The position numbers and the translations under genes are program-made. Shown here in pieces: positions 35,401 through 55,913 of a DNA stretch of 64,000 bases (position 1 is the first letter of the stretch; every line of letters starts with the position of its first letter). Below the pieces are notes generated by a model, which worked only from the letters and a program-made list of their open reading frames with translations, had not been told where the DNA came from and did not search any database. Location of the stretch: assembly GCA_965197375.1 (NCBI GenBank), contig CBDAMZ010000009.1, positions 137,956-201,955 on the forward strand, in the 5' to 3' direction. Source of the DNA: Vicinamibacterales bacterium (GTDB taxonomy: Bacteria; Acidobacteriota; Vicinamibacteria; Vicinamibacterales; UBA8438).

Positions 35401-35721
35401 AGCGACATGTGGCAACGAGCACTGCACGCCGACGAACGCTACACGGAGGTACCCTTCTCGTACTCAATCGAGGCGAAATCTGGACAAACGAAGATCACCC
35501 ACGGCGTGATTGATCTGGCCTCTCGACGCGGCAATACATGGGAAATCGTGGACTACAAGACCGACCAAGTGGATGATCCTGCGGAGCTGACGGCTCGGTA
35601 TCACCAACAACTCACTGCGTATGCGCGCGCGTGGAAGACACTCAGAGCTGACGAGAGCCGTGTTCGAGTCGGCTTGCATGCCGTTCGTCTCAACTCCACC
35701 GAGTGGCGTGATGCCGTCTAG
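32437..35721 (+). CDS. UvrD/Rep-type SF1 helicase with C-terminal PD-(D/E)XK nuclease (AddA-like)
   Basis: 1094-aa ORF. Motifs: LVEAGAGSGKTQSL (Walker A), FVDEFQDTDPIQ (motif II), VGDPKQSIYRFRRAD (motif III), VRLMNLHKAKGLQAEVVFL (motif V/VI region), and the C-terminal nuclease GVIDLASRRGNTWEIVDYKTDQV. Confidence 0.85.
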   Translation: MNVIKSTAGPNGQVPLPDKASRDVIERNLDVNMLVEAGAGSGKTQSLATRMAAGVLSGKYRVEHMAAVTFTRKAAAELRGRFQQVLEERRASEEDPDRRQRAQEALSRLERLFVGTIHSFCAHLLRERPVEAGLAPGFAELDDVGAIESRQQLWRAFIARKRAEGGALLPELRDAGIRAGDLDHAFATICTFDEVEFPAGNAPAPDPTPAWAALDRFWQQLDPLLPRRIPDDTTCKVLQKARDGQWQIRIARRDHPADLVDLVAPWEGAFRITMSRWTEWHEDPRQLREDIDRMLADLRAAIGPFLEAWRHYVYRLAITLMVQGREFARAHRYRALTLEYEDLLQCAARVLRENLTVRRALQQKYQWLFVDEFQDTDPIQAEVVAWLASDGRDASDWTTVSLRPGALFIVGDPKQSIYRFRRADIEIYSRVSELIHQSGGSLVPLAANFRATPLLCQWANGVFKDVFPDVPTPQQPQYQRLEPAPSFDTNQSPSPSGRTTGIRVLTTPSTCQKAADVVAHDAGAIARYIHAEIDAGNRQLGDFLVLTWKKGNLAEYARAMDAERVPVEVSGASAFGDSEQVHVLAALLRALVDPDDEVEVVGVLRGPLFGVSDPALYAHRSAGGTFIFTAVPLEDGPTTQAESSVIRALSRLRAMYHITRTLSAPAAVERILEDTGLLALTVGETRGGAKAGDLFQALDRVRWVTEEGGTLADAAASLEADVESNDIESLPLEPGRTDVVRLMNLHKAKGLQAEVVFLADPCGTFLPKADRRIVRDGESALGFLRIERKKPGSFHGQLLGLPVGWDAHEAAELAFVAAEHERLRYVAATRARMLLVVSRWGKPNVRKGPWLPFEPHLAGMAELQVPTEVSEPTLVSVDLSPKAIEEADYARVRRVLKGAELSFTTESVTGATHRDVVVREEDSARLLRGPATGIEWGDLVHKLLECAATTGQPDRERLRRRATWLTRGKPALQSVITATLDTVEQVMTSDMWQRALHADERYTEVPFSYSIEAKSGQTKITHGVIDLASRRGNTWEIVDYKTDQVDDPAELTARYHQQLTAYARAWKTLRADESRVRVGLHAVRLNSTEWRDAV

Positions 35722-40033: not shown

Positions 40034-40178
40034 CTTTGCGTGATGGAATTGTTTACGGTGCGTCTAGGTGTCGTGTCCCTAAAGTCACACGGAGGACAGG
40101 CCCTTGAGTAGGGGATTATAAGTTTCACTTGACACGACAGGCGGAGGACCACATGCCAGAATCAACTATACTACCCGG

Positions 40179-40415
40179 ATGATGCCGAAGATCATGAGCA
40201 CAGACTACGAAGCGATACTGACCGACGCGACCGAAATCAACGGCGAGAGCGCCCGCCTCAAGCGGAGAAACAACATCAACCGCTTCATCAACGAGGCCCA
40301 GGGGTGGCTCCAGCATCTTGAGACTCGCGGAGAGGGTCCCTCGCTGAAAGAAGCGCATCGGATCGTTGAACACCTCCGCGAGAAGTTAGACACGATTCCC
40401 GAGACAGACGACTAG
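40179..40415 (+). CDS. hypothetical 78-aa helical protein between the outer and inner left IR copies
   Basis: ORF with ordinary composition (MMPKIMSTDYEAILTDATEINGESARLKRRNNINRFINEAQGWLQHLE...). No motif recognised. Confidence 0.35.
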   Translation: MMPKIMSTDYEAILTDATEINGESARLKRRNNINRFINEAQGWLQHLETRGEGPSLKEAHRIVEHLREKLDTIPETDD

Positions 40416-40630
40416 ATGGAACTATGAGTTTCACTTGACACTCGCGCCCGCCTGACCTACCCTTCACTCGCCACAGCAGACTGCGTGCAATCCGACGTCG
40501 GGTTGCCCGCTCAATACAAGACCCTTCCGGGGAACAAGCGGGACTCTGCATACGCATGCGGTTTGTTGTGGCGACTGACCCGGCGACCAATTCAGGTCAC
40601 GGGCAATCCCAGAAGGGGGAAACCGTTGCT

Positions 40631-41035
40631 ATGCAAAGACTCGCGATCGGATTGATGCTCGTCGCTGTACTTGGTGTTGTCGCACCAGCTCATGCGCGCA
40701 CGGCTGGCAAAACGAAAGCTGGCGCGATTCTCACGCTCTCGGGAAGCGCCCTTGTGCTCGCGGCATTTGACTACACGGGCGATCAATGCCCAGAGGGGTA
40801 TTCGACGCATACGTATGAGAACCTTTCGACACAGTGCGTCTTTCTTAGCCGTTCTGGGTCTGACGTGCGAACGGCCACGACTGGAATTACGTACAAACGG
40901 CCTGGGCTGATGTGGAGCGGCCTCGGTGTGGCGGCCACCGGGATCGTGCTGTTGTTGCTTCCTGAACGAGCGCGGATGGTGGACGTGAGTGTGACGCCAG
41001 ATGGGTGGCGAGCCTCAAAGATGATCGGGTGGTGA
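40631..41035 (+). CDS. hypothetical secreted/membrane-anchored protein (IS passenger)
   Basis: Track ORF 40556..41035. Start placed at M26 (MQRLAIGLMLVAVLGVVAPAHA, signal peptide). A C-terminal hydrophobic segment GLGVAATGIVLLLL is present. Confidence 0.5.
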   Translation: MQRLAIGLMLVAVLGVVAPAHARTAGKTKAGAILTLSGSALVLAAFDYTGDQCPEGYSTHTYENLSTQCVFLSRSGSDVRTATTGITYKRPGLMWSGLGVAATGIVLLLLPERARMVDVSVTPDGWRASKMIGW

Positions 41036-41197
41036 AGGCTATAGAGTTCGGGTTCTAGTCCTCGGCTCGGGCACGCTGTGGGGCGTGCCCGAGCCTCATA
41101 CTGGTGAAATCACTCAGGGAGTGATACATGCCTAAAAAGCAAACGTCCAGTAGGGTATCAACGTTGGCGAGCCAAATCCTTTCAGGCGAGAAGAAAC

Positions 41198-41536
41198 CTA
41201 CCCTGAAGGACGCGAAGACGCTCGCGGCGTCTGTCTTGTCACAGGACGAGAAGAAAGGCCAGCGCCGAAAGTAAGCTTCGGCTCTTTCAATCGCGAGATT
41301 TTCACGATGCAACAGGCAGGAATGCGAATCAGGCCAGACACTTGGAGTGCCTCTTCGTCCTCGAGATCGCCCATATTCGGAGCCAGGGCTTTCACGTCGT
41401 TCCCATCGTGGACGAGCCACCCCACAGAGACGCATCGCACGACGCGGAGTGGGTTGTGCGTCAGTTCATGAAGAAAGCGCCAAGCCGATGTCGGTTGCGC
41501 ACTATCCTCCCATTCAATCATGACGAGCTGAACCAT
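41198..41536 (-). CDS. hypothetical protein (IS passenger)
   Basis: 112-aa ORF. The N-terminal ~80 aa look protein-like (MVQLVMIEWEDSAQPTSAWRFL...VSVGWLVHDGNDVKALAPNMGD). The C-terminal tail is low-complexity and overlaps a convergent 48-aa Lys-rich ORF (41128..41274, MPKKQTSSRVSTLASQILSGEKKPTLKDAK...), so its end is uncertain. Confidence 0.4.
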   Translation of the reverse strand: MVQLVMIEWEDSAQPTSAWRFLHELTHNPLRVVRCVSVGWLVHDGNDVKALAPNMGDLEDEEALQVSGLIRIPACCIVKISRLKEPKLTFGAGLSSRPVTRQTPRASSRPSG

Positions 41537-41621
41537 ACACGTGAAAGGATAGCACCAATGAGGAAACGCCCAGACTACGGCGACGCCACCCCGGAAGACT
41601 TAGTTCGTGCCGTGATGCGCC

Positions 41622-42599
41622 CTACGAACGGGCGCCCGATGCCAGTCCGTTCTGAGCAATCAGGTCGCGGTACATCAGACGCTTCCCGACTAACCCGCGC
41701 GCAAGGGAAATCATCTGCGCCTGCGTGTCCGCCTCGCGTAGGTTGTGCTTCCAGGCAAACTCGTTGACGTAGCGTTGGAGGTGCTTGGGGCTCAGCTTGT
41801 GGAAGGTGCCCTTGTGGGCACGTTTAAGCATGGCCCAGAAGCTTTCGATCCCGTTGGTGTGCGCCATGTTGCTAACGTACTCACCTGCTGAGTGCTTCAC
41901 AGTTTCGTGGTTCGGTAGTCCCTCGTACCCGCCGTGGTCATCAGTGTAGACCGTCGCGCCAGGCGCAGTGTGGCGTTCGACGAATCCCTGTAAGGTCGGC
42001 GCGTCGGTCTGCTCGATGACGCGCGCGCTCACGCGGTTCGTCTTCCGATCCTTCGCGCCGATGACCGCCGTTTTCCCTGAAGGCCCTCGCCCGGTTCCGG
42101 CGAGGGCTTTCCGCGTCGCGTTGCTCATGTTCCGGCGTTTGCCGCCGACGTACGTTTCGTCCACTTCGACGGGACCGGTGAATGATGATCGGGTTGGTCT
42201 CCCCCACGCTTCGCGAATGCGATGCAGCATGAACCACGCGGCTGGTTGTGACACCCCGATATCCCGATGGAGTTTCATGCTGGAAATGCTCTTGAGGCTC
42301 GTGAGTTCGAGATACATGGCGAAGGCCCATTTTCGCAGCGGCACATGCGAGCGTTCCAGGATGGTCCCCGTGCGGACACTGAAGTACGATCGGCAGTCAG
42401 TGCACCAGTAGGGCATCGGTGTCGCGTTCGGGACGGGTCTCGTCGCGATGCTCCCGCAGTGGCCGCATCCGCGACCATCGGACCAGACGTACCGCTCGAA
42501 CCAGAGGGTCGCCGTCTGTTCGTCGGGGAACATCCGGGTCAATTCGATGAGCGTGATCCCCTTCCGGTGTGATTTCCCAGGGGCGGCAGGTCTTGGCAT
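41622..42599 (-). CDS. IS1595-family transposase (N-terminal zinc-ribbon + DDE domain)
   Basis: 325-aa ORF. CGHCGS...YWCTDCRSYFSVRTGTILERSHVPLRKWAFAMYL is the zinc-finger/HTH region typical of IS1595. VEVDETYVGGKRR, VYTDDHGGYEGL and HTNGIESFWAMLKR give the DDE-type catalytic contexts. Confidence 0.9.
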   Translation of the reverse strand: MPRPAAPGKSHRKGITLIELTRMFPDEQTATLWFERYVWSDGRGCGHCGSIATRPVPNATPMPYWCTDCRSYFSVRTGTILERSHVPLRKWAFAMYLELTSLKSISSMKLHRDIGVSQPAAWFMLHRIREAWGRPTRSSFTGPVEVDETYVGGKRRNMSNATRKALAGTGRGPSGKTAVIGAKDRKTNRVSARVIEQTDAPTLQGFVERHTAPGATVYTDDHGGYEGLPNHETVKHSAGEYVSNMAHTNGIESFWAMLKRAHKGTFHKLSPKHLQRYVNEFAWKHNLREADTQAQMISLARGLVGKRLMYRDLIAQNGLASGARS

Positions 42600-42640
42600 G
42601 TCAGCGTCCTTTCACCTGTAACGATAGGCGAGTCTCGCTG

Positions 42641-43627
42641 CTATGTCAAGTTAAACTTATAATTCCCGAGGGTGGTGGTCCCGCTGCCGCTGGTGTAGTT
42701 CGCCGGCTTCAAGTTCACGGGATCGCCGCCGCCGACGCGCAGCGTGAGTTGCGGCGTGCCGGTCACCGCCACCGCCCGGTCAAAGGTCACCGTGGCCGTC
42801 ACCGTGTCGCCGATGGCGTAGGTCTCATCGGCGCCCGGGTCGGAGGTGAGTGCCACGTTGTTAATCGTCGGCGGCGGCTCGTTCACGTCGGTCAGGTCAA
42901 TCGCCACGGCGATGGTGTCGGTCCCGCCGAGGCCGCCGTCGGCCTTGACGGTCACCGCGTAGCTCGGCGTCGTCTCGTAGTCGTAGGTCACGCCCGACGT
43001 GGTCTGGATCTGGCCGCTCGCGGAGACGATCTGGAACGAGGCGGCGTCGGTCCCCTCCAGGGAGTAGGTCAGCGTGTCGTCGTTGCCGTCCGTGGCGGTG
43101 ACGGCGGCACCGACGTTCGTGCCCGCGTCGCTGTTCTCGGCCACCTCGCGCGTCGTGCTGTCCGCGCCGAAGTCCGGCGCGGCGTTGGAGAGGGTGAGGC
43201 GCGCCTGGACGGTATCGTCGTCGCTCCAGGTGAGACCGTGGCCGGTCCATATGTATCCTCTGTCACTGTTGCCGAGCGTAGCGGCGGAGAGGGCGAAGGA
43301 GGCGGAGCCGAGGTGGAGGGTCAGGCGCTGCGCGGCCGCGCCGGGGGCGGAATCGAATATGAGGACCAGTTGGTTGCTAACTGTTGGCACCTGAATTTGG
43401 AGGGCCGTGATCGTGTAGGTCGTTCCGCCCAGGTCGAAGTCGTCGTCGGACAGGCTGCCCGTTTGTTCAGAGGCGGTGTTGCTGAATCCGACGGACGAGA
43501 CAAATCCGCTGGTCACGTTCTCTTCTGCGGTGAGGGTGGCGGACCAGATCGCGGTCTGGGCCGCCGCGGGCGCGGGAAGGGCGAGGAGACCGGCGAGGGC
43601 GAGGAGCACGCCCCCGCTCGCGCGCAT
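42641..43627 (-). CDS. secreted cadherin-repeat protein, C-terminally truncated by the IS1595 insertion
   Basis: Track ORF 42641..44146. Start placed at M174 (MRASGGVLLALAGLLALPAPAAAQ, signal peptide). Cadherin-like unit: VAENSDAGTNVGAAVTATDGNDDTLTYSLEGTDAASFQI...YDYETTPSYAVTVKADGG...DLTDVNEPP. The reading frame runs into the IS terminal repeat and stops there (..GNYKFNLT*). Confidence 0.7.
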   Translation of the reverse strand: MRASGGVLLALAGLLALPAPAAAQTAIWSATLTAEENVTSGFVSSVGFSNTASEQTGSLSDDDFDLGGTTYTITALQIQVPTVSNQLVLIFDSAPGAAAQRLTLHLGSASFALSAATLGNSDRGYIWTGHGLTWSDDDTVQARLTLSNAAPDFGADSTTREVAENSDAGTNVGAAVTATDGNDDTLTYSLEGTDAASFQIVSASGQIQTTSGVTYDYETTPSYAVTVKADGGLGGTDTIAVAIDLTDVNEPPPTINNVALTSDPGADETYAIGDTVTATVTFDRAVAVTGTPQLTLRVGGGDPVNLKPANYTSGSGTTTLGNYKFNLT

Positions 43628-44188
43628 CGCGCGACCCCGCCGGGCCACAGCGCGCGGCCGGGCACGCCAGGCGTGCGCCGTCTGCCAGATTCCGCCGAGA
43701 GGGGCGCGGAGGCAGAGCGAGCGTCGGGCCGGGCGCCGGGGCGTTCCAGCGACACCGTGCGTGTCAGTGGCCGCCGCCCTCGCGGGCGCGGCGGACGTGG
43801 GGTCGGGCGGAGCGGCGATCCGTCGGACACGCTCTCCGCGTCGGGCGCCGTCATGGTCTTGGCGCGCGGACGCAATCGCGATCCGCAGGCGGGACGCATC
43901 TATGGCCGCACCCTCACGGTGCCAGGTGGCGCGTCCTTCCTGCTGAACGCCCCCCCGACGACGGGGGTCCCGCCGCCGTCCGGCGCACGCGCGTGCGGCC
44001 CACCCGAGCCACTCATGCCGGGCGGCGCGTCCGAACGACCCTGCCGGGGCGAACGCCGCGCCCACGGCTCCCAGGTTCTGGGTGTGGGCGTCCCCACAAC
44101 CCACTGTTCTTGATACCGTTCTGCGACGGACGCTCCCGGAATTCATGCCGTCCCTCCCTCGTTGCGTACTCGGCGCCCACGTGGGCGG

Positions 44189-44218
44189 GACTCGCGATAA
44201 CTGTAGTTATCGCGAGTC
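44189..44218. repeat. 30-bp palindrome, putative recombinase core site (centre GT)
   Basis: GACTCGCGATAACT-GT-AGTTATCGCGAGTC: 14-bp perfect arms, 13 nt upstream of the recombinase ORF start. Confidence 0.6.
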
Positions 44219-44230
44219 AAATGCCGGGCC

Positions 44231-45229
44231 GTGTTCGATGGACTCGGGGAGGTGGCGATGCTTGTGGAAAGCCTGAGCAGCCCGGTGCCGGCGAGCGCCG
44301 GGCGCACCGACCGCGACCCGCTCGACGCCGGCGCGGTGACCGCGCGCGGGGCGCTGAGCGCCAACACCGAGCGGGCCGTGCGCTCGGACCTCGCCATCTA
44401 CGCCGTCTGGTGCGCCGACCGCGGCGTGCCGGCGCTGCCCGCGAGCGCGGCGACCATCGCCACGTTCGTCGACGCCATGGCCCGGATCCGGGCCCCCTCG
44501 ACGGTGCGCCGCTACGTCGCCAGCATCGCCGCCGCGCACCGGGCGCTCGGCAGGGCAAAGACGGCGCGAAGCGAATCCGTGAGACGGGCGCTCCAGCGCA
44601 TGCACCGGCGCACGGGGCGGCGGCAGGCGCAGGCCAAGGGGCTCACCGGGGCGCTACGCCAGCGCCTGCTCGACGCGCCGGGCGAGCGGCTCATCGACGG
44701 ACGCAATCGCGCGCTGCTGGCGGTCGCCTACGACACGCTGCTGCGGCGCTCCGAGCTGGTGTCGCTGGACGTGTCTGATGTACTGGAGGAAATCGATGGA
44801 ACGGCGACGGTGCTGGTGCGCCGCTCCAAGGCCGACCCCGAAGGCCGCGGCGCGACGGTCTACCTGGCGCGCGACAGCGTGGCGCTGGTGCGGGCGTGGA
44901 GGCAGCGAAGCGGGGTGCGGGACGGCCGGCTGTTCCGCTCGCTGTGCCGGGGCGTGGTCGGCGCGGGGCTGGACGCGAGCCAGGTTCCGCGCATCTTCAA
45001 GGCGATGGCCGAGCGCGCCGGCGTCTCAGGCGCGGTCGTGCAGCACATCTCCGGGCACAGCCCCCGGGTCGGCGCGGCGCAAGACATGGTCGCGGGCGGC
45101 ATCGGCATGGCGGCCATCCTGCACGCCGGGCGGTGGAAGACCACGACCATGGTCAACCGCTACGGGGAGCGGCTGCTCGCCAGGCGCAGCGGCGCCGCGC
45201 AGCTCGCGCGGCTGCAGCAGCGCGAATAG
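44231..45229 (+). CDS. tyrosine recombinase (XerC/D-Cre-like 'phage integrase' family)
   Basis: 332-aa ORF (GTG; alternative ATG at 44258). N-terminal SAM-like core-binding region (TERAVRSDLAIYAVWCADRG). Catalytic contexts: AYDTLLRRSELVSL (Arg), VLVRRSKADPEGRG, ISGHSPRVGAAQDM (H-x-x-R) and HAGRWKTTTMVNRYGE (His/Trp...Tyr). Confidence 0.9.
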   Translation: MFDGLGEVAMLVESLSSPVPASAGRTDRDPLDAGAVTARGALSANTERAVRSDLAIYAVWCADRGVPALPASAATIATFVDAMARIRAPSTVRRYVASIAAAHRALGRAKTARSESVRRALQRMHRRTGRRQAQAKGLTGALRQRLLDAPGERLIDGRNRALLAVAYDTLLRRSELVSLDVSDVLEEIDGTATVLVRRSKADPEGRGATVYLARDSVALVRAWRQRSGVRDGRLFRSLCRGVVGAGLDASQVPRIFKAMAERAGVSGAVVQHISGHSPRVGAAQDMVAGGIGMAAILHAGRWKTTTMVNRYGERLLARRSGAAQLARLQQRE

Positions 45230-45320
45230 ATGCGCGGTGGTGTATCATGCGGCGGTCCCACCTCGGCCCGCTGTCGTGTCGCCGCCGAGCCGGGCGCAAA
45301 GAGGGCGGATTTTCCGCAAG

Positions 45321-45335
45321 AGTTATCGCGAGTCA
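45321..45335 (+). repeat. isolated half-site of the recombinase palindrome
   Basis: AGTTATCGCGAGTCA followed by TATGC. The same arm plus flank (AGTTATCGCGAGTCA-A/T-A/T-TGC) forms the right halves of the palindromes at 44189 and 45522. Confidence 0.5.
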
Positions 45336-45521
45336 TATGCGCCGATGGGCGTACGGTCGGCCCTGTCGGCGCGGGTGAGGCGGGCGCGGCGCGCCGTGCG
45401 CCCCGGACGGGACAAGCGGCAATGGAATCAACAGGTTGCCTTGAGTCGCCGTACGGCCTAGAATGACGCGATTACGACCGAGGCCGATTGCGCGGTCACC
45501 GGCCGAGAACGCCGAATTGCC

Positions 45522-45561
45522 CAATTGACTCGCGATAACTACAGTTATCGCGAGTCAATTG
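45522..45561. repeat. 40-bp palindrome, putative recombinase core site (centre AC, inverted relative to 44189..44218)
   Basis: CAATTGACTCGCGATAACT-AC-AGTTATCGCGAGTCAATTG: 19-bp perfect arms. The inner 30 bp are the exact reverse complement of the 44189 site. Confidence 0.6.
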
Positions 45562-46104
45562 CCTTGATATGAGCGCGTGACGCGACACGTCCAGCCCCTG
45601 CCTGTCAGCATCACCCGGTGCGCCCCGTGTCCCCGTTTCGGCCGGTGACTCGCCCCACCCGTCAACCCTCGAAATCCCTGTGACGTCGCGCCCGGCATCT
45701 GCGCCGACCCGGCAAGCACGCCGCCGCACGTCCGGCGCGGACGTCCGCCACGGCGTTGCGCGCTCGGCGAGCCATCGGCACGCGCCAGCAGGGTCACGCT
45801 CCGGCGCGGCCGTATCACCGTCCCGATCTCGGTGGTCTTCGTCAACCTCGTCCTTCCCAAGACGGGCCGCCCGCGCAGCCGCCGCCGCGTCGTTCACGCC
45901 CCGTCGCCGCGCCCCCCGCGGGTGGGCGGCATCTGCCATCCCTGCCGTGCATCACGTGGAGCCCATGCTACAAACGCGCCGGGAGGATGGGTAGACGAGA
46001 ACATTGCGGGTGGTTATGAGGGGGAACACCCCATGTTGTTGGGCTGTCGGCTCGCCGGTCCTGTGCCCGGTCTCGGGAGCCCGCCGCGGCGCCGGCGCAC
46101 CCGC

Positions 46105-47064
46105 TCAGCGGATCGACAGCAGGTACGCGCGCAGGGTCACGCGCCGCTCCACGCCGAGCTTGCCGCGGATGTTGTTGCGGTGAAAGTCGATCGTGCTCGG
46201 CGCCCGCGCCAGCGTGGCGGCGATGTCCTTCGTGGTCAGGCCGCGCATCACCAGATGCGCGACGTCGGCTTCGGTCGCGGTCAAGGCCTGGAACACGCGC
46301 GCCAGCCTCGATGAGAGCGACGAGGTGAGGGTCTTGAGGTGGGTCTCGATCAGGCGCACGTACTCCACGGCCGTGCTGTCGCGCTCCACAAGCCGCGCGA
46401 GCTTCGCCACATGCGGCAGCACCAGCGTATTGATCTGTTGCAGCAACTGCTCGTTGCGCGCCTCGTTGGACTGCTCGACATTGCCGAGCAGCACGCGTAG
46501 CGCCGTGTTGGCGTCCTGCAGTTCGCGGGTGCGTTCGACCACCTGCCGTGCGGTCTCGTCGAGCGATTGCTGCAGGGCGGTTTCGAGCCGCCGGCGTTCG
46601 GCGATCTCGACCAGCGACCGCAGGGTTGCCTCGACCACGCCGGCGAACGCCTGCAGCCCCTCGCGGAACAGCAGCGCGTGGGCGTTGCGCTCGCGGTCGA
46701 GCACGCAGATCGTGCCGAACACGTCGCCGCTGGGCCATTTCAGGGGATAGCCGATGTAGAAGCGCATCCCGTCGGCCAGATCCTCGTTCCCCGCCCAGAC
46801 CGGGTCGCGGGTCGCGTCCTCGACCACCAGCTCGCCGTCGTTGTCGAACACGCCCTGGCAATAGAGCACGGCGTGCAGATCGTACTCGCGCCCGACCGCG
46901 TAGGGGTTGCCCTCGGTGCGGCTACTCACCAGGACCGTGTGCTTCGGACGCGCGGTTTGCATGATCAGGCTCGCCGGCACCCGGGCGAGCCGGGCCGTCA
47001 GGTCGACCACGCGCTGCCACTCGGCCAGCGTCTCGGGCGGGATCTCGGGCAGCACGGTCGTCAC
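46105..47064 (-). CDS. GAF-domain sensor fused to LuxR/FixJ-type HTH transcriptional regulator
   Basis: Track ORF 46105..47661, but its first ~200 aa are Arg/Pro-rich and overlap the upstream gene. Start placed at GTG (V200, VTTVLPEIPPETLAEWQR). GAF-like region ...PYAVGREYDLHAVLYCQGV...GYPLKWPSGDVFGTICVLD. The C-terminal LTATEADVAHLVMRGLTTKDIAATLARAPSTIDFHRNNIRGKLGV is a LuxR HTH. Start uncertain. Confidence 0.7.
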   Translation of the reverse strand: MTTVLPEIPPETLAEWQRVVDLTARLARVPASLIMQTARPKHTVLVSSRTEGNPYAVGREYDLHAVLYCQGVFDNDGELVVEDATRDPVWAGNEDLADGMRFYIGYPLKWPSGDVFGTICVLDRERNAHALLFREGLQAFAGVVEATLRSLVEIAERRRLETALQQSLDETARQVVERTRELQDANTALRVLLGNVEQSNEARNEQLLQQINTLVLPHVAKLARLVERDSTAVEYVRLIETHLKTLTSSLSSRLARVFQALTATEADVAHLVMRGLTTKDIAATLARAPSTIDFHRNNIRGKLGVERRVTLRAYLLSIR

Positions 47065-47581: not shown

Positions 47582-48547
47582 TTATCTGGTCGGCGGCACT
47601 CTTGGAATTGCGAAGAGGGAATTCCTCTGTTCCGCGCGCTTCTCCTCGAAGTAGCGGTCAAACGACCTTACGTCGCTGGTTCTGCCTAGCTCCGCGCCCT
47701 GCTTGATCCAGCGCACCAACATCCGAAACGGGTCGGGCGGTCTGGATCCGCCTGCGTGCGTCGCCGTCTCCGCGGACCACGAGTCCTGCCACGCCTCCGG
47801 GCCGTCCTTGTGCACCGTCACCCCGTAAGTTCCGGCGGCGGACTTGCGCACCTCCTTCCGCTCCCCCTTGGTCACTTGTCCCCACCTTACGGCATGCCCG
47901 TCCAGCGTCACGAGCAGGTTCGGCACCACGCTCGCATCCAGGCCCGCCGAGAGCCCGCTGAACATCCCCACCAGCGTTTCGCGACTCAGCCGCGACTCGC
48001 CCGCCAGCACGAACCCGAATATCTGTGCTCGCTCTTTCTGTTCCGGCCCCTCGTCCAGTCGGACGACCGAGTCGCGGTGCGGAGACAGGTAGTTCCGTTT
48101 CAACGGGATCGGTTCTCCGGTCGTGGGATGCGGCAGCAGGTCAGTCACGTCGTACCGCCGAAGTTCCTTCGCCGACGCGACCTTCCGGAACGCGTCCTCG
48201 AGCGAATCCCCATCCAGCCGACTCTTGATCTCGCCCACGGCGATCACGCCTTCGCACGGGTAGTAGGTCGTTTGCGCCGTGCGATTCACCGAGAACACCG
48301 GGCAGATGTCCCGCTCGTATACAACAACGTCCTGCTGGCGGCTCGTCCCGTCGTAGTTGTCTATGACGAAGCCTTCCCCGACTCCCAGACCCCGTGGCAG
48401 GACCTGCTCCAGTTGGTCCCTAACGGGTTGCTCCGCCGCCGATCCCACGGTCGACGGAGTAGTGCCGGCCTTTGCGTCCTTGAATTCGTCGACGAGCCGC
48501 TCACCGATGCGCCGGATGAATGCGTCCGGATCGAAGGTCCTGCTCAT
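47582..48547 (-). CDS. PD-(D/E)XK nuclease-fold protein (DUF6602-like)
   Basis: 321-aa ORF. SRQQDVVVYERD ... YPCEGVIAVGEIKSRLD gives a D...E-x-K arrangement on predicted strands. The family assignment is from memory of the DUF6602 pattern and is not verified. Confidence 0.55.
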   Translation of the reverse strand: MSRTFDPDAFIRRIGERLVDEFKDAKAGTTPSTVGSAAEQPVRDQLEQVLPRGLGVGEGFVIDNYDGTSRQQDVVVYERDICPVFSVNRTAQTTYYPCEGVIAVGEIKSRLDGDSLEDAFRKVASAKELRRYDVTDLLPHPTTGEPIPLKRNYLSPHRDSVVRLDEGPEQKERAQIFGFVLAGESRLSRETLVGMFSGLSAGLDASVVPNLLVTLDGHAVRWGQVTKGERKEVRKSAAGTYGVTVHKDGPEAWQDSWSAETATHAGGSRPPDPFRMLVRWIKQGAELGRTSDVRSFDRYFEEKRAEQRNSLFAIPRVPPTR

Positions 48548-49315: not shown

Positions 49316-51313
49316 TCAATCAGTGTCTTGTTCCGTTGGGCTATTCTTCTCTCTTGCGACATCAGGAAATGATTTCACAAACGCTGACAGCGCCGCTTCG
49401 GCGCGACCACACGTCTCCCAAAGAGCGGGCTCTACGTGAAGCAGTGCATAGATCTTTCTTTGTAAAGCGATGGCTTCCTCGCAAGTCATGTCTTCAAACG
49501 CCAACTCATTGAGCCAATCGCCGACGGTCTCGCTCCATGCAGCCAAGTCGCTGTTGGCAGCAGCCGCCACCACAGCGACTCGCGCAACGCCTTCAAGTGA
49601 AAGACCACAGTCAGCGCGCCGCCGTGCGACTCGACAAAGGTTCCGTACCTCGTTCGCCAACGCTACGCTCCGGGTGACAGCACTCACCACCGCAAGGCCA
49701 TTCAGCAGCGAGAACAAATCGTCATTGCCACTCACCCTCCGAAGCTGATATCCAACGCGAGATAAGCCCTGGGCTGCCAGTTCTGACAACTGGGGGCTGG
49801 TGCGATATAGCAATGACATGTTGACGAGTTCGCTGAATGACTCCGGAGTCAGTTCCTCAGTTTGAAGACTCACTCTGATGCTAGATTCATACTTGTCCGG
49901 CATTTCGATCACGGCCGCTGAGCCGCCTTCGAGAGGTCCTGGGAGAAAGGCATAGGGAATGATCTTGCGGGATTGAACCGCAGAACCTTCTCCCCAAAGA
50001 AGCGAAGTCAATTCACCCGATCGAACATTCTTTCGATATCGTTCCGCCGCATTCCTAATCCTTCCCAACATCTCTGCCTGGAGCTGCTTCGGCGTCATCC
50101 CGTCTGGGAACCAGCGTGGCTCTTGACGCAAGTCAACCAATGATTGCATGTAATAGTGAGCCCCACCACTCTCAAGTGCCCATTCTGAAAACACCGTTGG
50201 CGCTAGCTCTGCATCAAGTGCCTCGCGCTCAATTAGTGCGGCGTGAGCAATAGACGCCAGCCGTCTCCAAAATGGCGGTCGTTGTCGAGCGATGCTTCGG
50301 CGACTGATCTCACCGTCAACAAGCACCACGAGACCCGACAACAGCTTCAGACGCCCAGCGGGATCTTCCGGATCGTCAGCGCCAATCACCTGGATCATCG
50401 CCGCAAGCCATGGCTCAATCTCAGGAACCGAGTCGAAATGCTGCAGACCACATTCTATTGCCCCGACCTGAGAGATGCGATCGCCATGATTTGCCAACCA
50501 CTCGTAGGTCCGCACCACCTCCTCACGTGGCACCGCCGTCAAATCGATGATTTGCGAGATCATTTGATGAGACGAAAGCACGAATACGGACCGAAGTCCT
50601 TTATAGGACTTCCACTGAACCAGTGTCCGCACGTGAGACGTAAGCACGCCAGAGATAAAGTCGTTCACGTTTGTCTCGGTAGCCGGAATGCCTACCAAGC
50701 GATCGAAATATCGCAGATCGGATGGCACCAAGTCAGCGCCACTGAAATTAGGTGCTCGCAGCCGTTCACGGTTTGCGGCGGTGCAATGCACAGGAGTCAA
50801 ACGGAATTCGTCAAGAACGTCATTAACTTCGTCGTCCTCTAACGGTCTGTCAATCAAGACGTCTCGCCATCTCTTAATGCGTTCGTCGATGATGGCACAG
50901 TCGGCCGTCTGTCTCTCGAACCATTCCATTCGTGTATTGACGTCAGGCGCTAGACACGCACATTCTGGCAACGCCTGCACGACTTTCTCATGGGTAACAG
51001 TGATTCCAGTTCCATTGTCATTGGTTAGGCGCCATACCATACCGTCCATCGACTCAACGTCTACGCTACGAGTCGCGCCAGCAAGTACTTGTCGCGCGGC
51101 TCGGAAGAGTGTTGAGCGAATAAACTCTGCGCCTGTTCGCTTTAGCTGAACTACTGCGTCGCCGCGGAGGGCATAACGGGTGCGAAACTCTTCGTCTCTC
51201 ACTATGGCGGTACGTACGCTTGGCGGAAACAGTCGCAATGCCGCCATAGCCATCTCTGCGCCAGAGGGTGTTTCAGTCGTCATCGCCTGTTCTGTTCTGT
51301 AAACGTGTGACAC
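49316..51313 (-). CDS. large hypothetical protein (665 aa as tracked), partner of the 1546-aa gene
   Basis: Long ORF in an AT-richer segment with ordinary amino-acid composition. No motif recognised and no Walker A. The frame opens (GTG 51313; ATG 51283 or 51253) around the stop of the upstream gene (51273-51275), so the two genes overlap or abut. Confidence 0.6.
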   Translation of the reverse strand: MSHVYRTEQAMTTETPSGAEMAMAALRLFPPSVRTAIVRDEEFRTRYALRGDAVVQLKRTGAEFIRSTLFRAARQVLAGATRSVDVESMDGMVWRLTNDNGTGITVTHEKVVQALPECACLAPDVNTRMEWFERQTADCAIIDERIKRWRDVLIDRPLEDDEVNDVLDEFRLTPVHCTAANRERLRAPNFSGADLVPSDLRYFDRLVGIPATETNVNDFISGVLTSHVRTLVQWKSYKGLRSVFVLSSHQMISQIIDLTAVPREEVVRTYEWLANHGDRISQVGAIECGLQHFDSVPEIEPWLAAMIQVIGADDPEDPAGRLKLLSGLVVLVDGEISRRSIARQRPPFWRRLASIAHAALIEREALDAELAPTVFSEWALESGGAHYYMQSLVDLRQEPRWFPDGMTPKQLQAEMLGRIRNAAERYRKNVRSGELTSLLWGEGSAVQSRKIIPYAFLPGPLEGGSAAVIEMPDKYESSIRVSLQTEELTPESFSELVNMSLLYRTSPQLSELAAQGLSRVGYQLRRVSGNDDLFSLLNGLAVVSAVTRSVALANEVRNLCRVARRRADCGLSLEGVARVAVVAAAANSDLAAWSETVGDWLNELAFEDMTCEEAIALQRKIYALLHVEPALWETCGRAEAALSAFVKSFPDVAREKNSPTEQDTD

Positions 51314-54300
51314 TTCTCATGATTAAATGTGACGCGTCTTGAATTGATGCAGTGAACACATCGCTCTGCGTTTCCCTCACATCCTCCAATAGCGCGTTGT
51401 TCAGCCATTCCCAATATGCGTGTCGACGCTCCGACGCTTCCGATTTGAAGGTCATTAGTGCCACCAGTAGTGCACGAAAGCGCACGTGGCTATCCCCTCG
51501 ATCTGCCTCACCAACGTGTCGATGAGACCAACCACGAATATCTAGCAGCTCCAAGAGCCACGTACTCCGTGCCGCAGCCGTTGTGATGTCGATGTCTTCT
51601 CGCCACTGAGACCTGATTGTGTCAAGCAGTACGTGAAAAAGATTGTCTAACCAGGTGGACTCTACTGCAGGCGTGAGTCCTTTGGACATCCGGCACAGTT
51701 GTAGGTTTTCACGCAACGCTTTCATTTCAGCGCCCTCAGCTAGGGCATCGTCAACGACAGTACTTCGCGACAACAACACGGTGAGCTCGTCAAAGTCAAC
51801 TGGCACAAACGCAAGAGCTGCAGAGCGCATGCGCGAAAGATAGTCCGTGCGTTGCTCTTCTTCTAACTGCAATGCAGATAGCAGATCATATGTAGTCCAC
51901 AGAGGCGTCCGTGCACCACCGTTTTGTGAGATGTCTGAGTGCTGATTGAAATAGCGATCGTCAATAACAGCGACGTCGGCACAATTTGCGATTCGTATGA
52001 TGTCGATGGCTGGATGATCAAGAGCAGCATCTGTTGGACCCTCGTTCTGCACTCTCTGAGCCAGGCGCACCTTCCCGTTCATGATCCCGTTTCTGAGCAC
52101 CTCCCTGATGTGGTCGATAACCGCGTTCGCGCGCTCGGCTAGAGCCTCGTACTTAATGAGGCGATCGCCTTCGGCAATATGATTCGCTGAAATCATCAAA
52201 GAGAAGCCAGATGCCTCGAACTTGGGAAGGAGTCGGAGGTGCTGGAAGTACAAGAGTGATACACTGTCGATATAAAGCACTGAACCCGGCGCGACGGCGG
52301 GGTTCTCCGCCCAGGGGGTCTCGTGCAGGTTCAGAAACGTCCGCGCGCGGCGTTCCTCTGCTCGGGTTAGACGTCCTTGTTGAACTAAAGCGTCAATTAC
52401 GGCGAGACAGCCGCAGACGTACGTTTTGTGAAGACCGATGTCTGCCTCTTCTTCCATCAGAGACGCCACTCGATGGATCGGTGCAGACTTCACGACACGA
52501 CGCGGCCTGCGATCAGAACCCCAATCTGCTTTGGCCTCCGCGAATAAGCACGCAAGCTCTCGGCCAACCTCGCTTGCAAGCGCTTCATCGATGGGTGCCG
52601 TGGGCTCGATGGGCTTTAGTAGGCCAGAATCCACAAGACGTCTGATCTCACGCGCACTGGCTACCCTGCTTGGTTGATGAAAACGAATACGCTGCTTTTC
52701 TTCGAACAGCCATCCCAGCGTCGAGTGAGGAACTACAACCCTGCTCACCGCGCGCATTATCCGCTCAAGTAGGCCACACGTCCCTGCGATGAGAAGGGCG
52801 GTTGGGTCTATTGCAATCGAGTGAGGCATGCGCGATGACACACCTCGTCGAGCACCACTGTAGCTATACAGCAACACTCGCCGACGCGGATCAATGGTTT
52901 CCACATTGGCAAGGACGGGCAACATTAAGAACTCCGCCAGAGACCGGCTCAGCAGTCGTGCGCAAGTGAACATTGGAACGAGGCCAGCATTAAACTGATC
53001 CCAAGCTTCCGCCTCTCGTTGTTGCCAGTCTGGGTGTCGATCGATTAAGTCCCGGAGCGATACCCGTTCAACCGGGCCGCCTGAGTCAGATAGCGTCGCG
53101 GCTCGTTCGATCCATTGGACAGTAGTCTCGTCTTCCCATCCGGCCGCCACCGCACTGGAGTAGCATCCGAGTAGCACGTGCGGATCATCCGTCGCCTTGG
53201 CGGCGGCCTCTACAATGAGTGCTTGCGCTCGGGCCGATGTCAATTCTTGCGCTATTTGGCCAGCACGCAACAGTTCTTCGGCACTTCGGTCTGCTCGTCG
53301 CTCCCACTCGCGTTCCACAAAAGTCGCAAGAGAATGCCAGTCACCTGACGCAATCGCTAGATTTACAGCGAGAATCCGATCCTCCGGACAGTCGCGATGT
53401 TCCTGCAGCCGCGTCAGGGCATCGAGACACTTAGCTAACTCGCCAAGATTGTAAAGCGACCAAGCAAGCGATGACTGAAGGTGCTCGGATCTCGACAGCA
53501 GATCCTCGTGCACGCGCAGCAACTCGACGACCTCCTGAAACTTAGCAGTTTCAAATAAGGTCCTAGTGTAAAGCTGGCAGCTTGGTAGGTCGTTGGTCCG
53601 CTCAAAAAGAATCGCCGCGTACGTGGTTAGTCGAGCCCAATCTCTCTCACTTTCTAATGCCTCTACGAGAAGTATCAGGTCTGTCAGTTTATTTGTGGAA
53701 GCGAACTGCCTTTCGCGGACCACCGTTCGATTGGATTCTGCCTCGGCAATAAGCTGTGATAGTCGCGCGCGCTGCTCACTGGGCACATCATGGTTCAAGA
53801 GTTCTTCCAGGCGTTCTTTCGCCAAGGGAAGCTGGCCCGAAGCGACCAGTGACTCGACCTCAATGCTATTAAGGAAAAATATATTCAAGTGTTTCGCCAG
53901 CTCATGTCGATGTTGCCGGATATACGCGGCGCATTCCACGGGTGGCTTCGTCTGAGCGATCGCTAATCGTGCAAGGGCAGCATCTCTTGACCCATTGGCA
54001 GATAGTGATATGTGGCGATCGATCTCCTGCTCCACTGTGTCGAGATCGATCGTCAGGCCGAACTGCAGAGCGATCGGCAATCTCCTGAGGGCGTGCTCAG
54101 GACTTCGCATACTCTGTTCAAGGTCATTGATCGCGATGTGTCGTTCATCGGGATCCCTCAGCCTCAGCAACAGCGCACGGTCGGTCGCGTCGTAACTGCT
54201 CTCTAAGCATTCGAACTCCTGTGCTGCAAGAGCAGATTGCTGATACAAGTGTTGCGCCTTCCGTCGTGTCTCTAGCGAGGCGACGTCATCGGCAAGGGAA

Positions 54301-55913
54301 ATAGGTCCGATTATGAATGGTGGTTGCGATAGAATCACTTTTGCCAATTCACGTGGAACAACGGATGCCAAATGAGCATTCGCAGCGACATACCAGAGCG
54401 CTGGAGTGTGCTCAAAGTCACCGGGCTCAAGGCCGGCACAGCTCGCCAGTGCGTCCTCGAACAGGCTCGCATCCAGCTGCGCTGCGATCACGAAGAACCG
54501 TCCATCAGAATCGAGGTCGGCGAGCGTCAGACCACTCTTGCGTAGCCAAGCCAATGCCTCCTCTTGGTTCTTGTTATTCTTGATTGCGATGAATACTGCG
54601 GCTCGCGCAGTTCGTGACTCAAACTGTGACAGCTTGGCAATCGCACCTTCAAGATCGCCAGCGTAGGACTGCTCAAGGGCCTCAGCAATCGACACTTCCT
54701 CCGTATCTGCGAAACGGCGCGCGGCCCTAACGAGCTCCGGTCCCTCTGTATGACCGGGTTTGCCAAGCAAGAGCCGTGCACACCAAGCCACACCTCGCGC
54801 TTTTGTTATCGCGGGCGCCAATGCAAGATCGCCCGTAGAGAACGCTGTAGCTAGCCGCAAGGCTTGTTCATGAGGCCGTGCGCCGCTAAGGAACCGACTC
54901 TTCCGCAGACGCGTAAGGCGTCTCTCCGCCTCGGTGTTAACCAACTCTCGAGGCATTGCCACCGATAACGGAGAAGCGAACGTACTGGTTGTCAGTGTTG
55001 TCTCGATACGTACATGTGTGACGGGAATGCTTGTCGTACCTGCAGCGGTGTCCTGCAACGTGTCGTGGGTGACCAGCGTTGTGCGAGGACGCAATTGAGA
55101 GGGTGCCTTCAAGAAGTTCTTGATGTGAAGGTACGCCTCGGACTCCCGTGATGCTGGCGAGGCAATTCCAAGATGATCCGCATCAAGCGGAATTGGAGTT
55201 GGGAGCAATCCTGGGTCAGCGCGGTCGGGCGGGACAATATGGAACCCGAGTATGCTCTTAGTCTCGATCAGCGTCTTTATTGCAATGCCATTGTCCGCAG
55301 CGTACCCTCGAAACCATACGTTCAGATCTTGAAGACTCGGATTGTTACGTGCTAGTCCTCTCACGGCTGGCGACGGGCAGATGAGTAAACGCAGTATTCC
55401 GGTCCATGTGGCTAAATCGGCACCGCGATGAGGAGTTCCCAGGAATGCTATGCGACTGACTCGTTGGACAAAATTCGCTGCGTCTGGTTGCCGGGGCGAT
55501 AAATCATGCGCGACGCGCAGAATCTGTTCGAGGATCAGCCCACCGAAACTATGCGCAACGAATGCGATGTCCCCTTCAGCCAACCGCTCGTTCGTCAAGA
55601 GCAACGACAGGATATTGTTGGCTCGGTCGACTCGTGACATGGCGTGACCACGCCACAGAGTAGGCGCCGAATCATGTTCGATGCTCCAGACGCCAAGACG
55701 AGGGATATCATCTGCAAGCCACCGTGGCCACACCTCAGGCTTTCTACCGGAGGACAGCCACGGTTCTTTGTTCGAGAATCGAACCCCGTGAATCAACACA
55801 ACGTGCCTGTCAATAGACGCGAGGCTCGAGAGAGGGACTAGTTTCGACAGGATGAACTCCAAAGGATGTGCGAGATGGCGCCGATCGCAGGCGACGTTGC
55901 GCGATCGTGGCAC
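51273..55913 (-). CDS. giant protein: N-terminal lipase/esterase-like alpha/beta-hydrolase (DUF676/PGAP1/SesB-like) + >1200 aa helical-repeat region
   Basis: 1546-aa ORF. Hydrolase motifs: HVVLIHGVRF, IAFVAHSFGGLILEQI (nucleophile elbow, Ser122 at ~55548-55550), AFLGTPHRGADLA and LDADHLGIAS (Asp/His). The remainder is Leu/Ala/Glu/Arg-rich and TPR/helical-like, with no P-loop. The C-terminal ~500 aa contain several hhhD strands (IAIDPTALL, VLYIDSVSL, VAVIDDRYF) that could be a PIN-like fold (weak). Confidence 0.7.
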   Translation of the reverse strand: MPRSRNVACDRRHLAHPLEFILSKLVPLSSLASIDRHVVLIHGVRFSNKEPWLSSGRKPEVWPRWLADDIPRLGVWSIEHDSAPTLWRGHAMSRVDRANNILSLLLTNERLAEGDIAFVAHSFGGLILEQILRVAHDLSPRQPDAANFVQRVSRIAFLGTPHRGADLATWTGILRLLICPSPAVRGLARNNPSLQDLNVWFRGYAADNGIAIKTLIETKSILGFHIVPPDRADPGLLPTPIPLDADHLGIASPASRESEAYLHIKNFLKAPSQLRPRTTLVTHDTLQDTAAGTTSIPVTHVRIETTLTTSTFASPLSVAMPRELVNTEAERRLTRLRKSRFLSGARPHEQALRLATAFSTGDLALAPAITKARGVAWCARLLLGKPGHTEGPELVRAARRFADTEEVSIAEALEQSYAGDLEGAIAKLSQFESRTARAAVFIAIKNNKNQEEALAWLRKSGLTLADLDSDGRFFVIAAQLDASLFEDALASCAGLEPGDFEHTPALWYVAANAHLASVVPRELAKVILSQPPFIIGPISLADDVASLETRRKAQHLYQQSALAAQEFECLESSYDATDRALLLRLRDPDERHIAINDLEQSMRSPEHALRRLPIALQFGLTIDLDTVEQEIDRHISLSANGSRDAALARLAIAQTKPPVECAAYIRQHRHELAKHLNIFFLNSIEVESLVASGQLPLAKERLEELLNHDVPSEQRARLSQLIAEAESNRTVVRERQFASTNKLTDLILLVEALESERDWARLTTYAAILFERTNDLPSCQLYTRTLFETAKFQEVVELLRVHEDLLSRSEHLQSSLAWSLYNLGELAKCLDALTRLQEHRDCPEDRILAVNLAIASGDWHSLATFVEREWERRADRSAEELLRAGQIAQELTSARAQALIVEAAAKATDDPHVLLGCYSSAVAAGWEDETTVQWIERAATLSDSGGPVERVSLRDLIDRHPDWQQREAEAWDQFNAGLVPMFTCARLLSRSLAEFLMLPVLANVETIDPRRRVLLYSYSGARRGVSSRMPHSIAIDPTALLIAGTCGLLERIMRAVSRVVVPHSTLGWLFEEKQRIRFHQPSRVASAREIRRLVDSGLLKPIEPTAPIDEALASEVGRELACLFAEAKADWGSDRRPRRVVKSAPIHRVASLMEEEADIGLHKTYVCGCLAVIDALVQQGRLTRAEERRARTFLNLHETPWAENPAVAPGSVLYIDSVSLLYFQHLRLLPKFEASGFSLMISANHIAEGDRLIKYEALAERANAVIDHIREVLRNGIMNGKVRLAQRVQNEGPTDAALDHPAIDIIRIANCADVAVIDDRYFNQHSDISQNGGARTPLWTTYDLLSALQLEEEQRTDYLSRMRSAALAFVPVDFDELTVLLSRSTVVDDALAEGAEMKALRENLQLCRMSKGLTPAVESTWLDNLFHVLLDTIRSQWREDIDITTAAARSTWLLELLDIRGWSHRHVGEADRGDSHVRFRALLVALMTFKSEASERRHAYWEWLNNALLEDVRETQSDVFTASIQDASHLIMRSVTRLQNRTGDDD

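Follow-up and report, generated by a model that had tools for sequence, protein, structure and literature searches.

Why a tyrosine recombinase gene should be bracketed by two palindromes with mutually inverted centres is the question raised by a stretch of 64,000 nucleotides (hereafter the window) from a Vicinamibacterales bacterium (assembly GCA_965197375.1, contig CBDAMZ010000009.1, positions 137,956 to 201,955 of the forward strand). A sequence-only reading of the window had proposed that the recombinase flips its own gene and may thereby switch a neighbour, or else that the palindromes are the ends of a small mobile cassette. Here we explore the locus and its relatives, and argue that 44187-45558 is probably a self-contained Cre/lox inversion module, which would either switch an adhesin-type gene on its left ON and OFF or alternate between that gene and a regulator on its right. 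Both the inversion and its regulatory output are deduced from comparison and position. The proposal of a recombinase that flips its own gene is favoured by homology to Cre, by paired sites, by covariation of the site spacers and by the occurrence of both orientations among relatives.

Judged by its sequence, the gene product is a full-length Cre-type tyrosine recombinase with all catalytic residues. The gene lies at 44258-45229 on the plus strand; its likely start is ATG 44258, which is preceded by GGAGGTGG and gives a protein of 323 amino acids (aa), while the longest open reading frame begins at the alternative GTG 44231. The 13 nt formerly given as the distance between the left palindrome and the reading frame hold for that longest frame and not for the likely start. 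PF00589 (Phage_integrase) matches with E = 1.5e-16 (61 bits against a cut-off of 27). By means of phmmer against PDB sequences, Cre and Tre chains were retrieved with E = 4e-21, residues 9-312 of the query matching Cre 15-333, whereas XerD reached just E = 5e-6 in the same search. Identity to Cre is about 28%. Residues R163, K191, H267, R270, W293 and Y302 align with R173, K201, H289, R292, W315 and Y324 of Cre, and none of the six varies among 32 aligned homologues. More than 2,200 homologues were found, and 323 aa is the length of most of the matches listed. Membership of the XerC/XerD-dif system was rejected: the NCBIfam models for XerC and XerD gave 45 and 44 bits against cut-offs of 335 and 330, and in place of a single dif site each locus has two sites, with several such loci in a genome. 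Searches with the exact sequences of the window recombinase (both starts) and of the neighbouring LuxR-type protein found no contig on record.

The two palindromes contain lox-type sites of 34 bp each. The left site, U, reads GGGACTCGCGATA-ACTGTAGT-TATCGCGAGTCAA (arm, spacer, arm; 44187-44220, plus strand) and lies 37 nt from ATG 44258; the right site, D, reads TTGACTCGCGATA-ACTACAGT-TATCGCGAGTCAA (45525-45558, plus strand) and is inverted with respect to U, the two spacers being exact reverse complements. The sequence-only reading had described the first palindrome as GACTCGCGATAACT-GT-AGTTATCGCGAGTC at 44189-44218 and the second as a 40-bp palindrome at 45522-45561, about 290 nt past the recombinase, with inner 30 bp that are exact reverse complements of each other and differ in symmetry at the central GT/AC alone. 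All of this was found as described, with the second palindrome placed 293 nt after the stop codon (45229). The palindromes are best read as core sites, though not as units of 14-2-14, since relatives show 13-8-13 and 34 bp; the window spacer ACTGTAGT is nearly palindromic, so that just its central dinucleotide appears asymmetric. The outer arm of U starts with GG, both here and in the orthologous loci L081, L169 and L170 (relatives found in our scans carry the prefix L), where the whole U site is identical; other relatives have TT at this position. In L081 the U spacer is likewise ACTGTAGT and the D spacer (6066-6099) is ACTATAGT, a perfect palindrome, a change of one base by which D loses its polarity and a mismatch to U arises in the crossover region.

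A further arm, AGTTATCGCGAGTCA, stands alone between gene and D (45321-45335, plus strand), in the orientation of the outer arm of D and preceded by TTTCC. Its presence had been noticed before; comparison adds that it is kept in relatives as a conserved fifth, presumably accessory, arm. When up to two mismatches are allowed, the 14-nt arm AGTTATCGCGAGTC occurs five times in the window, every time at the recombinase gene, where 0.42 occurrences are expected and none of 100 shuffled sequences reached five. Elsewhere, too, the sites accompany a recombinase gene. Since the arms are confined to the gene, we discard the idea, raised with the original observation, that the palindromes belong to a dispersed repeat of the repetitive extragenic palindromic (REP) kind without relation to it.

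Whether homologous recombinases carry such palindromes was asked by a genome scan, which delivered 80 loci with encoded proteins 58-93% identical to the window recombinase. They do: an inverted U/D pair brackets the gene in 69-71 of the 80, U lying 40-70 nt before the start codon in about 70 loci and D 230-390 nt after the stop codon. When the sites are aligned, each proves to consist of two 13-bp arms around a spacer of 8 bp, as in loxP. Compared in inverted orientation, the sequences outside U and D cease to resemble each other above background about 12 nt past the CGATA core, hence the arms measure 13-17 bp and are not part of a longer terminal repeat; neither a target-site duplication nor longer terminal repeats were found flanking U and D. 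A Cre-type enzyme exchanges the central region of the spacer and needs this to match between partner sites. Across the family about 30 distinct spacers occur, and in 44 of the 71 detected pairs the spacers of U and D are exact reverse complements; most of the other true pairs differ at spacer position 1 or 8 only, with the central 6 bp in agreement. The arms follow the same trend, with 1.8 mismatches per 13 nt within a locus versus 3.3 between loci. Among metagenome loci, most with at least 60% identity have the inverted pair, and relatives below about 57% have one site or none. The diversity of spacers may keep copies in the same genome from recombining with each other.

At this point the sites can be weighed as operators, either for the neighbouring LuxR-type regulator or for autoregulation, with recombination playing no part. 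LuxR boxes are palindromes of about 20 bp, many loci have a LuxR-family gene no more than 1 kb from D, and in some subfamilies the lone arm falls in the spacer of a promoter-like element. However, the sites are present in about two thirds of loci having no LuxR gene, plasmid relatives with a single site have no annotated LuxR gene nearby, and beside the 13-8-13 geometry of loxP, asymmetric spacers of opposite polarity would be meaningless to a dimeric operator. We regard this explanation as very improbable.

Some copies depart from the common plan. Loci L031 (3883-3949) and L044 (2698-2764) have two tandem U-type sites, 47 bp apart, upstream of the recombinase, and far longer tails of about 820 nt. 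N-terminally truncated recombinase copies and solitary D-type sites occur in L002 and L021 (OZ245021.1, about 12 kb apart), L052 and L060; they lie near intact cassettes on the same chromosome and may be remnants of rearrangement between cassettes. A second conserved palindrome, of a different type (GCCGCGCACGG-N4-CCGTGCGCGGC), recurs shortly outside the cassette about 170-300 bp to the right of D in the alphaproteobacterial loci L034, L036, L038, L039, L041, L053 and L071, in which the flank beyond D is conserved among the copies.

What else, besides the gene, would be carried along by inversion? From stop codon to D extends a tail of about 300 nt with three conserved blocks. The tail is non-coding, since indels among close relatives do not come in multiples of three, and a coding tail was rejected accordingly. 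No Rfam family matched in the tail, nor did anything in the whole window reach gathering score; a structured RNA was dismissed, the one match, of the palindrome to a microRNA model (E = 0.04), being due to chance. The best-conserved block is the lone arm, which is flanked by TTCC and, at its opposite end, by an A-rich hexamer. Counted as a match to the locus's own arm with at most two mismatches, it is found in 46 of 64 loci, always on the plus strand and, in all but one, 173-197 nt before D. In several subfamilies its flanks score as a promoter that has the arm in its spacer. The second block, (A/T)TCAAC(A/G)GGTTGC, corresponds to 45426-45438 of the window, where it fits the integration host factor (IHF) consensus WATCAANNNNTTR. 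The block moreover contains the -35 element of TTGCCT-17-TAGAAT (45436-45464), which reads toward and out through D and is the sole sigma-70-like match in 43400-46300 on both strands (0.1 expected). Together these form a tail block, AATCAACAGGTTG (45426-45464, plus strand), that resembles both an IHF site and a sigma-70 promoter and that is kept in the window's subfamily and partly across the family. A looser motif, [ACT]TCAAN4TTG, for which 0.002 occurrences per locus are expected, is found in 19 of 64 tails, for the most part 86-98 nt from D. The third block, TTGAC(A/C), lies just inside D. All promoter-like elements of the tail read toward D.

What stands at either side of the cassette was studied with gene calls based on GC content at third codon positions (GC3), covering left neighbours in 52 loci. 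In 48 of the 52, the gene left of U points away from the recombinase, being on the minus strand; about 28 of these genes encode more than 900 aa, most of them running off the 4-kb flank. Their Pfam domains comprise Cadherin, Cadherin-like, fn3, Calx-beta, SRCR, SWM_repeat, PPC, He_PIG and Ig-like, as well as a sulfatase fused to a cadherin-like domain; the left neighbours have no single domain architecture in common, and independent gene calls agree. Leaders of 100-900 nt separate U from the start codons of these adhesin-type genes. On the right there is no strand bias (31 plus, 27 minus). Regulators are frequent on this side: LuxR-type helix-turn-helix genes, in three architectures, account for 26 of the 349 genes called and occur in 26 of 81 loci, and OmpR-type, LysR and hybrid kinase-regulator genes also occur to the right of D. 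Both neighbours named by the sequence-only reading can thus be placed: the cadherin-repeat gene is a member of the strongly recurrent class on the left, and the LuxR-type regulator is of a kind that recurs on the right.

Indirect evidence for inversion comes from the orientation of cassettes relative to their flanks. In one metagenome-assembled genome (MAG) of Rhodobacterales, the cassettes of L031 and L044 are 96.7% identical and both flanks are swapped and reverse-complemented, with 94.6% and 80.9% identity, as expected from inversion in one copy. Another group of loci has a MalT-like LuxR gene with its 5' end at the cassette, next to U in L012, L028 and L050 and next to D in L027 and L032; the side opposite to it is surface-protein-like, with leucine-rich repeats (LRR) in L012 and Cadherin/Calx-beta/SRCR in L027. 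In L024 a gene for a 1,249-aa Calx-beta/SWM_repeat protein abuts D. Loci L057 and L059 share one flank at 98.8% identity up to the site, in opposite orientation, and their other flanks are unrelated, a pattern that suggests recombination between cassettes at different loci.

By analogy with Cre, four recombinase monomers would bind the four arms and synapse U with D, upon which strand exchange across the central 6 bp of the spacer would invert the 1.3-kb interior, that is the recombinase gene and the 300-nt tail, and leave the site sequences unchanged. In the present orientation the 5' end of the recombinase faces the adhesin leader and the tail faces the regulator gene; inversion would turn the tail and its outward promoter-like elements toward the adhesin leader. 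The accessory arm, possibly with an IHF-type bend, could give the reaction a bias, regulate it or act as a repressor of the tail promoter. More speculatively, in window-type loci the flipped recombinase would come to lie downstream of, and co-directional with, the LuxR gene, and the flipped state could be short-lived, which would account for the single orientation seen in assemblies.

A number of observations weigh against an inversion switch of this kind. The flipped pairs are paralogues or distant homologues, with 64-95% flank identity, and not alleles, and a metagenome scan, which brought more loci, found no new flipped pairs of high identity. The window-type locus has one orientation in all five assemblies (window, L081, L168, L169 and L170), and its orientation is always the same in the contexts of the close homologues P0003, P0084, P0108, P0023, P0002, P0122 and P0128. 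A strict sigma-70 scan of the family found matches on the plus strand in 18 of 59 tails versus 8 of 59 on the minus strand; because this enrichment is weak, the tail promoter is kept here as a putative one. The conserved second block could, moreover, be an IHF-type site and not a -35 element. The recombinase gene has no promoter match upstream, nor was its own promoter found anywhere in the scan of 43400-46300. With leaders of their given length, the adhesin genes could have promoters of their own. Finally, the window's regulator is convergent with the recombinase gene, so a tail promoter would read antisense into it.

The strongest competing explanation is that of a mobile cassette or recombination hot spot, in which the inverted sites mark the ends of the unit and inversion is a side reaction. 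The unit would move by double crossover with a second copy, in the manner of recombinase-mediated cassette exchange, or by site-specific recombination between loci, which would reshuffle the pairing of adhesin gene and flank. The distribution of the family gives it some credit. The 80 loci come from Vicinamibacterales, Terriglobia and Bryobacterales (Acidobacteriota), Alpha- and Gammaproteobacteria, Chloroflexi, Longimicrobiales (Gemmatimonadota) and Latescibacterota, and many record names point to sponge microbiomes. Many loci are found on contigs or complete chromosomes of 4-6 Mb, with as many as five copies in a single genome. Across phyla the recombinases remain 60-93% identical: the window protein is 93% identical to L001 and 62% to L073, a second copy in the Vicinamibacterales genome that holds L001, and 86% to L002, on a gammaproteobacterial chromosome. 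The contrast between L002 and L073 points to recent transfer across phyla. Genes for conjugation (TrbC, ArdC, TrbI) are found close to orthologous loci, and copies in unrelated contexts exist; on the inversion reading as well, the modules move horizontally together with their adhesin genes, apparently on conjugative elements.

Between the window and L004/L008 homology ends exactly at the sites (44189-45563), and the single shared flank of L057/L059 fits as well. The comparison with L168 is mixed: here the LuxR-DUF6602 flank is 98% identical, the cassette just 74%, and the adhesin gene is a different one, of fn3 type, so that adhesin gene and cassette appear replaceable together, yet identity breaks about 320 nt outside D and not at a site. 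Many other pairs stay homologous beyond D or U, which implies that the transferred unit often exceeds the cassette. Inverted sites, furthermore, cannot yield an excised circle, and free insertion would hardly place cassettes so regularly at the 5' ends of giant genes. No target-site duplication and no transposon-like ends exist past the recombinase arms; a transposon or insertion sequence (IS)-like element was rejected on the same grounds, as inverted identity ends with those arms. Of the small mobile cassette that the sequence-only reading gave as its alternative, horizontal spread and some homology boundaries at the sites thus stand, whereas duplications, terminal repeats and a circular form do not. 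As a full account of the locus we consider it unlikely, and prefer an inversion module that is itself shared horizontally.

A look at the nearest relatives in cultured bacteria brings up another possibility, namely a degenerate resolution system of a plasmid or prophage, with a duplicated, functionless second site and a link to adhesins that merely reflects shared conjugative islands. These relatives (45-48% identity) are found on Methylobacterium/Methylorubrum plasmids, beside VapBC toxin-antitoxin genes, and the two plasmid loci scanned have one upstream CGATA-N8-TATCG site and no second core site of CGATA type; the window locus itself lies among IS and defence genes. Against this, the second site is kept in about 70 loci, at a fixed position and inverted, its spacer tracking that of U through some 30 variants; the conserved fifth arm would be left unexplained, and the loci are chromosomal. 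Degeneration of a resolution system is in our view improbable. Since plasmid relatives and metagenome relatives below about 57% identity have one site or none, the second, inverted site is better seen as a specific gain, and both it and the accessory arm appear to have been gained in the clade above 60% identity. The single upstream site of the plasmid loci reads ATTGCCTGCGATA-ACACCATC-TATCGCGGGAAAT (L164, 3818-3851, plasmid p1METDI of Methylorubrum extorquens DM4; L165, 3890-3923), and these homologues in cultured strains offer a tractable model for the enzyme family.

If the inversion module is compared to known systems, its proposed logic is that of Hin/hix of Salmonella and of Gin and Cin. 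Hin is likewise encoded within the segment that it inverts, and this segment also has an outward promoter for a flanking surface-protein gene. Hin, however, belongs to the serine recombinases and depends on Fis and an enhancer, and its chemistry, sites and protein family are unrelated to those of the present module. In the FLP/FRT system of the yeast 2-micron plasmid the gene lies between two inverted sites, and recombination flips the segment that carries it; this is a eukaryotic plasmid with sites inside 599-bp repeats, the reaction serves copy-number amplification, and FLP is no close relative. A parallel to the accessory arm is offered by TnpI/IRS of Tn4430, in which an inverted-repeat core site beside the gene is accompanied by directly repeated accessory arms that bind the recombinase, but TnpI resolves cointegrates between directly repeated IRS copies and there is no inverted second core site.

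Homology to Cre, catalytic residues and a 13-8-13 target beside the gene are shared with Cre/loxP of P1, Dre/rox, Vika/vox, VCre and the YR series (PMC10250229). P1 Cre/loxP and its plasmid relatives have one site, for cyclisation or multimer resolution, whereas the present loci have two inverted sites and a fifth arm, are chromosomal and multi-copy per genome, and are situated at the 5' ends of adhesin-type genes. The closest cultured relatives, the Methylobacterium/Methylorubrum plasmid recombinases (for example WP_012778790.1 on p1METDI), are alike in their CGATA-N8-TATCG site and differ, in the two plasmid loci scanned, in having one such site, no adhesin gene and adjoining VapBC. The Cre-type class is regarded as simple and free of accessories, while here the conserved fifth arm and the IHF-consensus-like block suggest accessory elements. 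Phase variation of surface structures through promoter inversion is a known theme of tyrosine-recombinase invertons (PMC6083910, PMC5386303), represented by fimS with FimB/FimE, Bacteroides Mpi, RecV of C. difficile and ipuS of uropathogenic E. coli (UPEC), of which fimS uses accessory factors such as IHF. There the recombinase gene lies outside the DNA that is inverted, and the enzyme often acts in trans on many short inverted repeats; the enzymes are not of Cre type and their sites lack the 13-8-13 lox geometry. A search of the paper library found no description of a self-bracketed Cre-type inversion arrangement, which suggests that the arrangement itself is new, its components and theme being known from Cre/loxP, Hin and fimS.

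The pattern invites a wider proposal. Sponge symbionts have surface proteins with animal-type adhesion domains that are thought to mediate host recognition, and to our knowledge the regulation of these genes is largely uncharted. Tentatively, and with less confidence than for the module in the window, we propose that self-encoded, horizontally shared Cre/lox toggles, each consisting of recombinase, accessory arm and outward promoter, phase-vary giant 'eukaryotic-like' adhesin genes (cadherin, fn3, Calx-beta, SRCR, LRR) in at least five phyla, many of the bacteria being sponge-associated. A recombinase switch at the start of adhesin genes across phyla would, if correct, make phase variation of host-interaction proteins directly testable, and its design, a Cre-type enzyme that rides inside the flipped DNA with an accessory arm, stands apart from textbook tyrosine-recombinase invertons. 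For genome engineering the family would provide dozens of Cre relatives whose native 34-bp sites are read directly from the genome, in other words a natural library of Cre-type recombinases with known and mutually distinct targets. Finding the native site is the limiting step of current recombinase discovery pipelines, and a discovery study of Cre-type enzymes sought single palindromes near such genes, for use as tools (PMC10250229).

In the window itself, the left neighbour of the cassette is a remnant of a cadherin-like surface-protein gene (42668-44146, minus strand), assigned by Pfam Cadherin (E = 3e-5, below the Pfam cut-off) and by homology to L170, in which the intact orthologous gene encodes 610 aa with Cadherin, SWM_repeat and fn3; a signal-peptide-like start is found at ATG 43627. 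Its 3' part is cut off by an IS1595-family element at 40111-42667, with a transposase gene on the minus strand (41622-42599, 325 aa, DDE_Tnp_IS1595) and 24-bp inverted repeats at 40111-40134 and 42644-42667. Homology to the intact L170 locus starts at 42665, inside the right inverted repeat, and no continuation of the cadherin-like gene was found on the other side of the element. The cassette itself seems intact, but the gene presumed to be its target is cut short. Left of U, a non-coding leader of about 300 nt (43877-44188) is 70-74% identical at the gammaproteobacterial loci L002 and L005; it holds a GGAGG-ATG motif (ATG 44146) and a possible hairpin (GTGGG...CCCAC), and its third-codon-position GC, low by eye, argues against coding.

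The right neighbour (46105-47064, minus strand) encodes a GAF-LuxR regulator of 319 aa (GerE, E = 1e-11); the L081 orthologue has the same length, with a weak GAF match and GerE. This flank is 90-98% identical beside cassettes that are just 74-93% identical. Near-identical relatives of the regulator abound (the protein collection has clusters of 201 and 237 members), several of them truncated or fused, one to an rve integrase domain, and the gene travels with a DUF6602 gene, both in the window (47582-48547) and in L168. In L166 and L167 the regulator adjoins an IS fragment and no cassette is present. Farther to the right, at 49316-55913 and 59271-60389, lie genes for a 1,546-aa protein with HTH_upstream_double_PIN and PIN-TPR-GreABC domains and for an AAA_15/AAA_21 ATPase, and together with DUF6602 these make the region resemble a defence or mobile island. 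An AddAB-type helicase-nuclease pair (29277-35721; PDDEXK_1, and UvrD-helicase with PDDEXK_1) and a TonB-dependent receptor (24352-27351) point to an ordinary chromosomal context left of the island.

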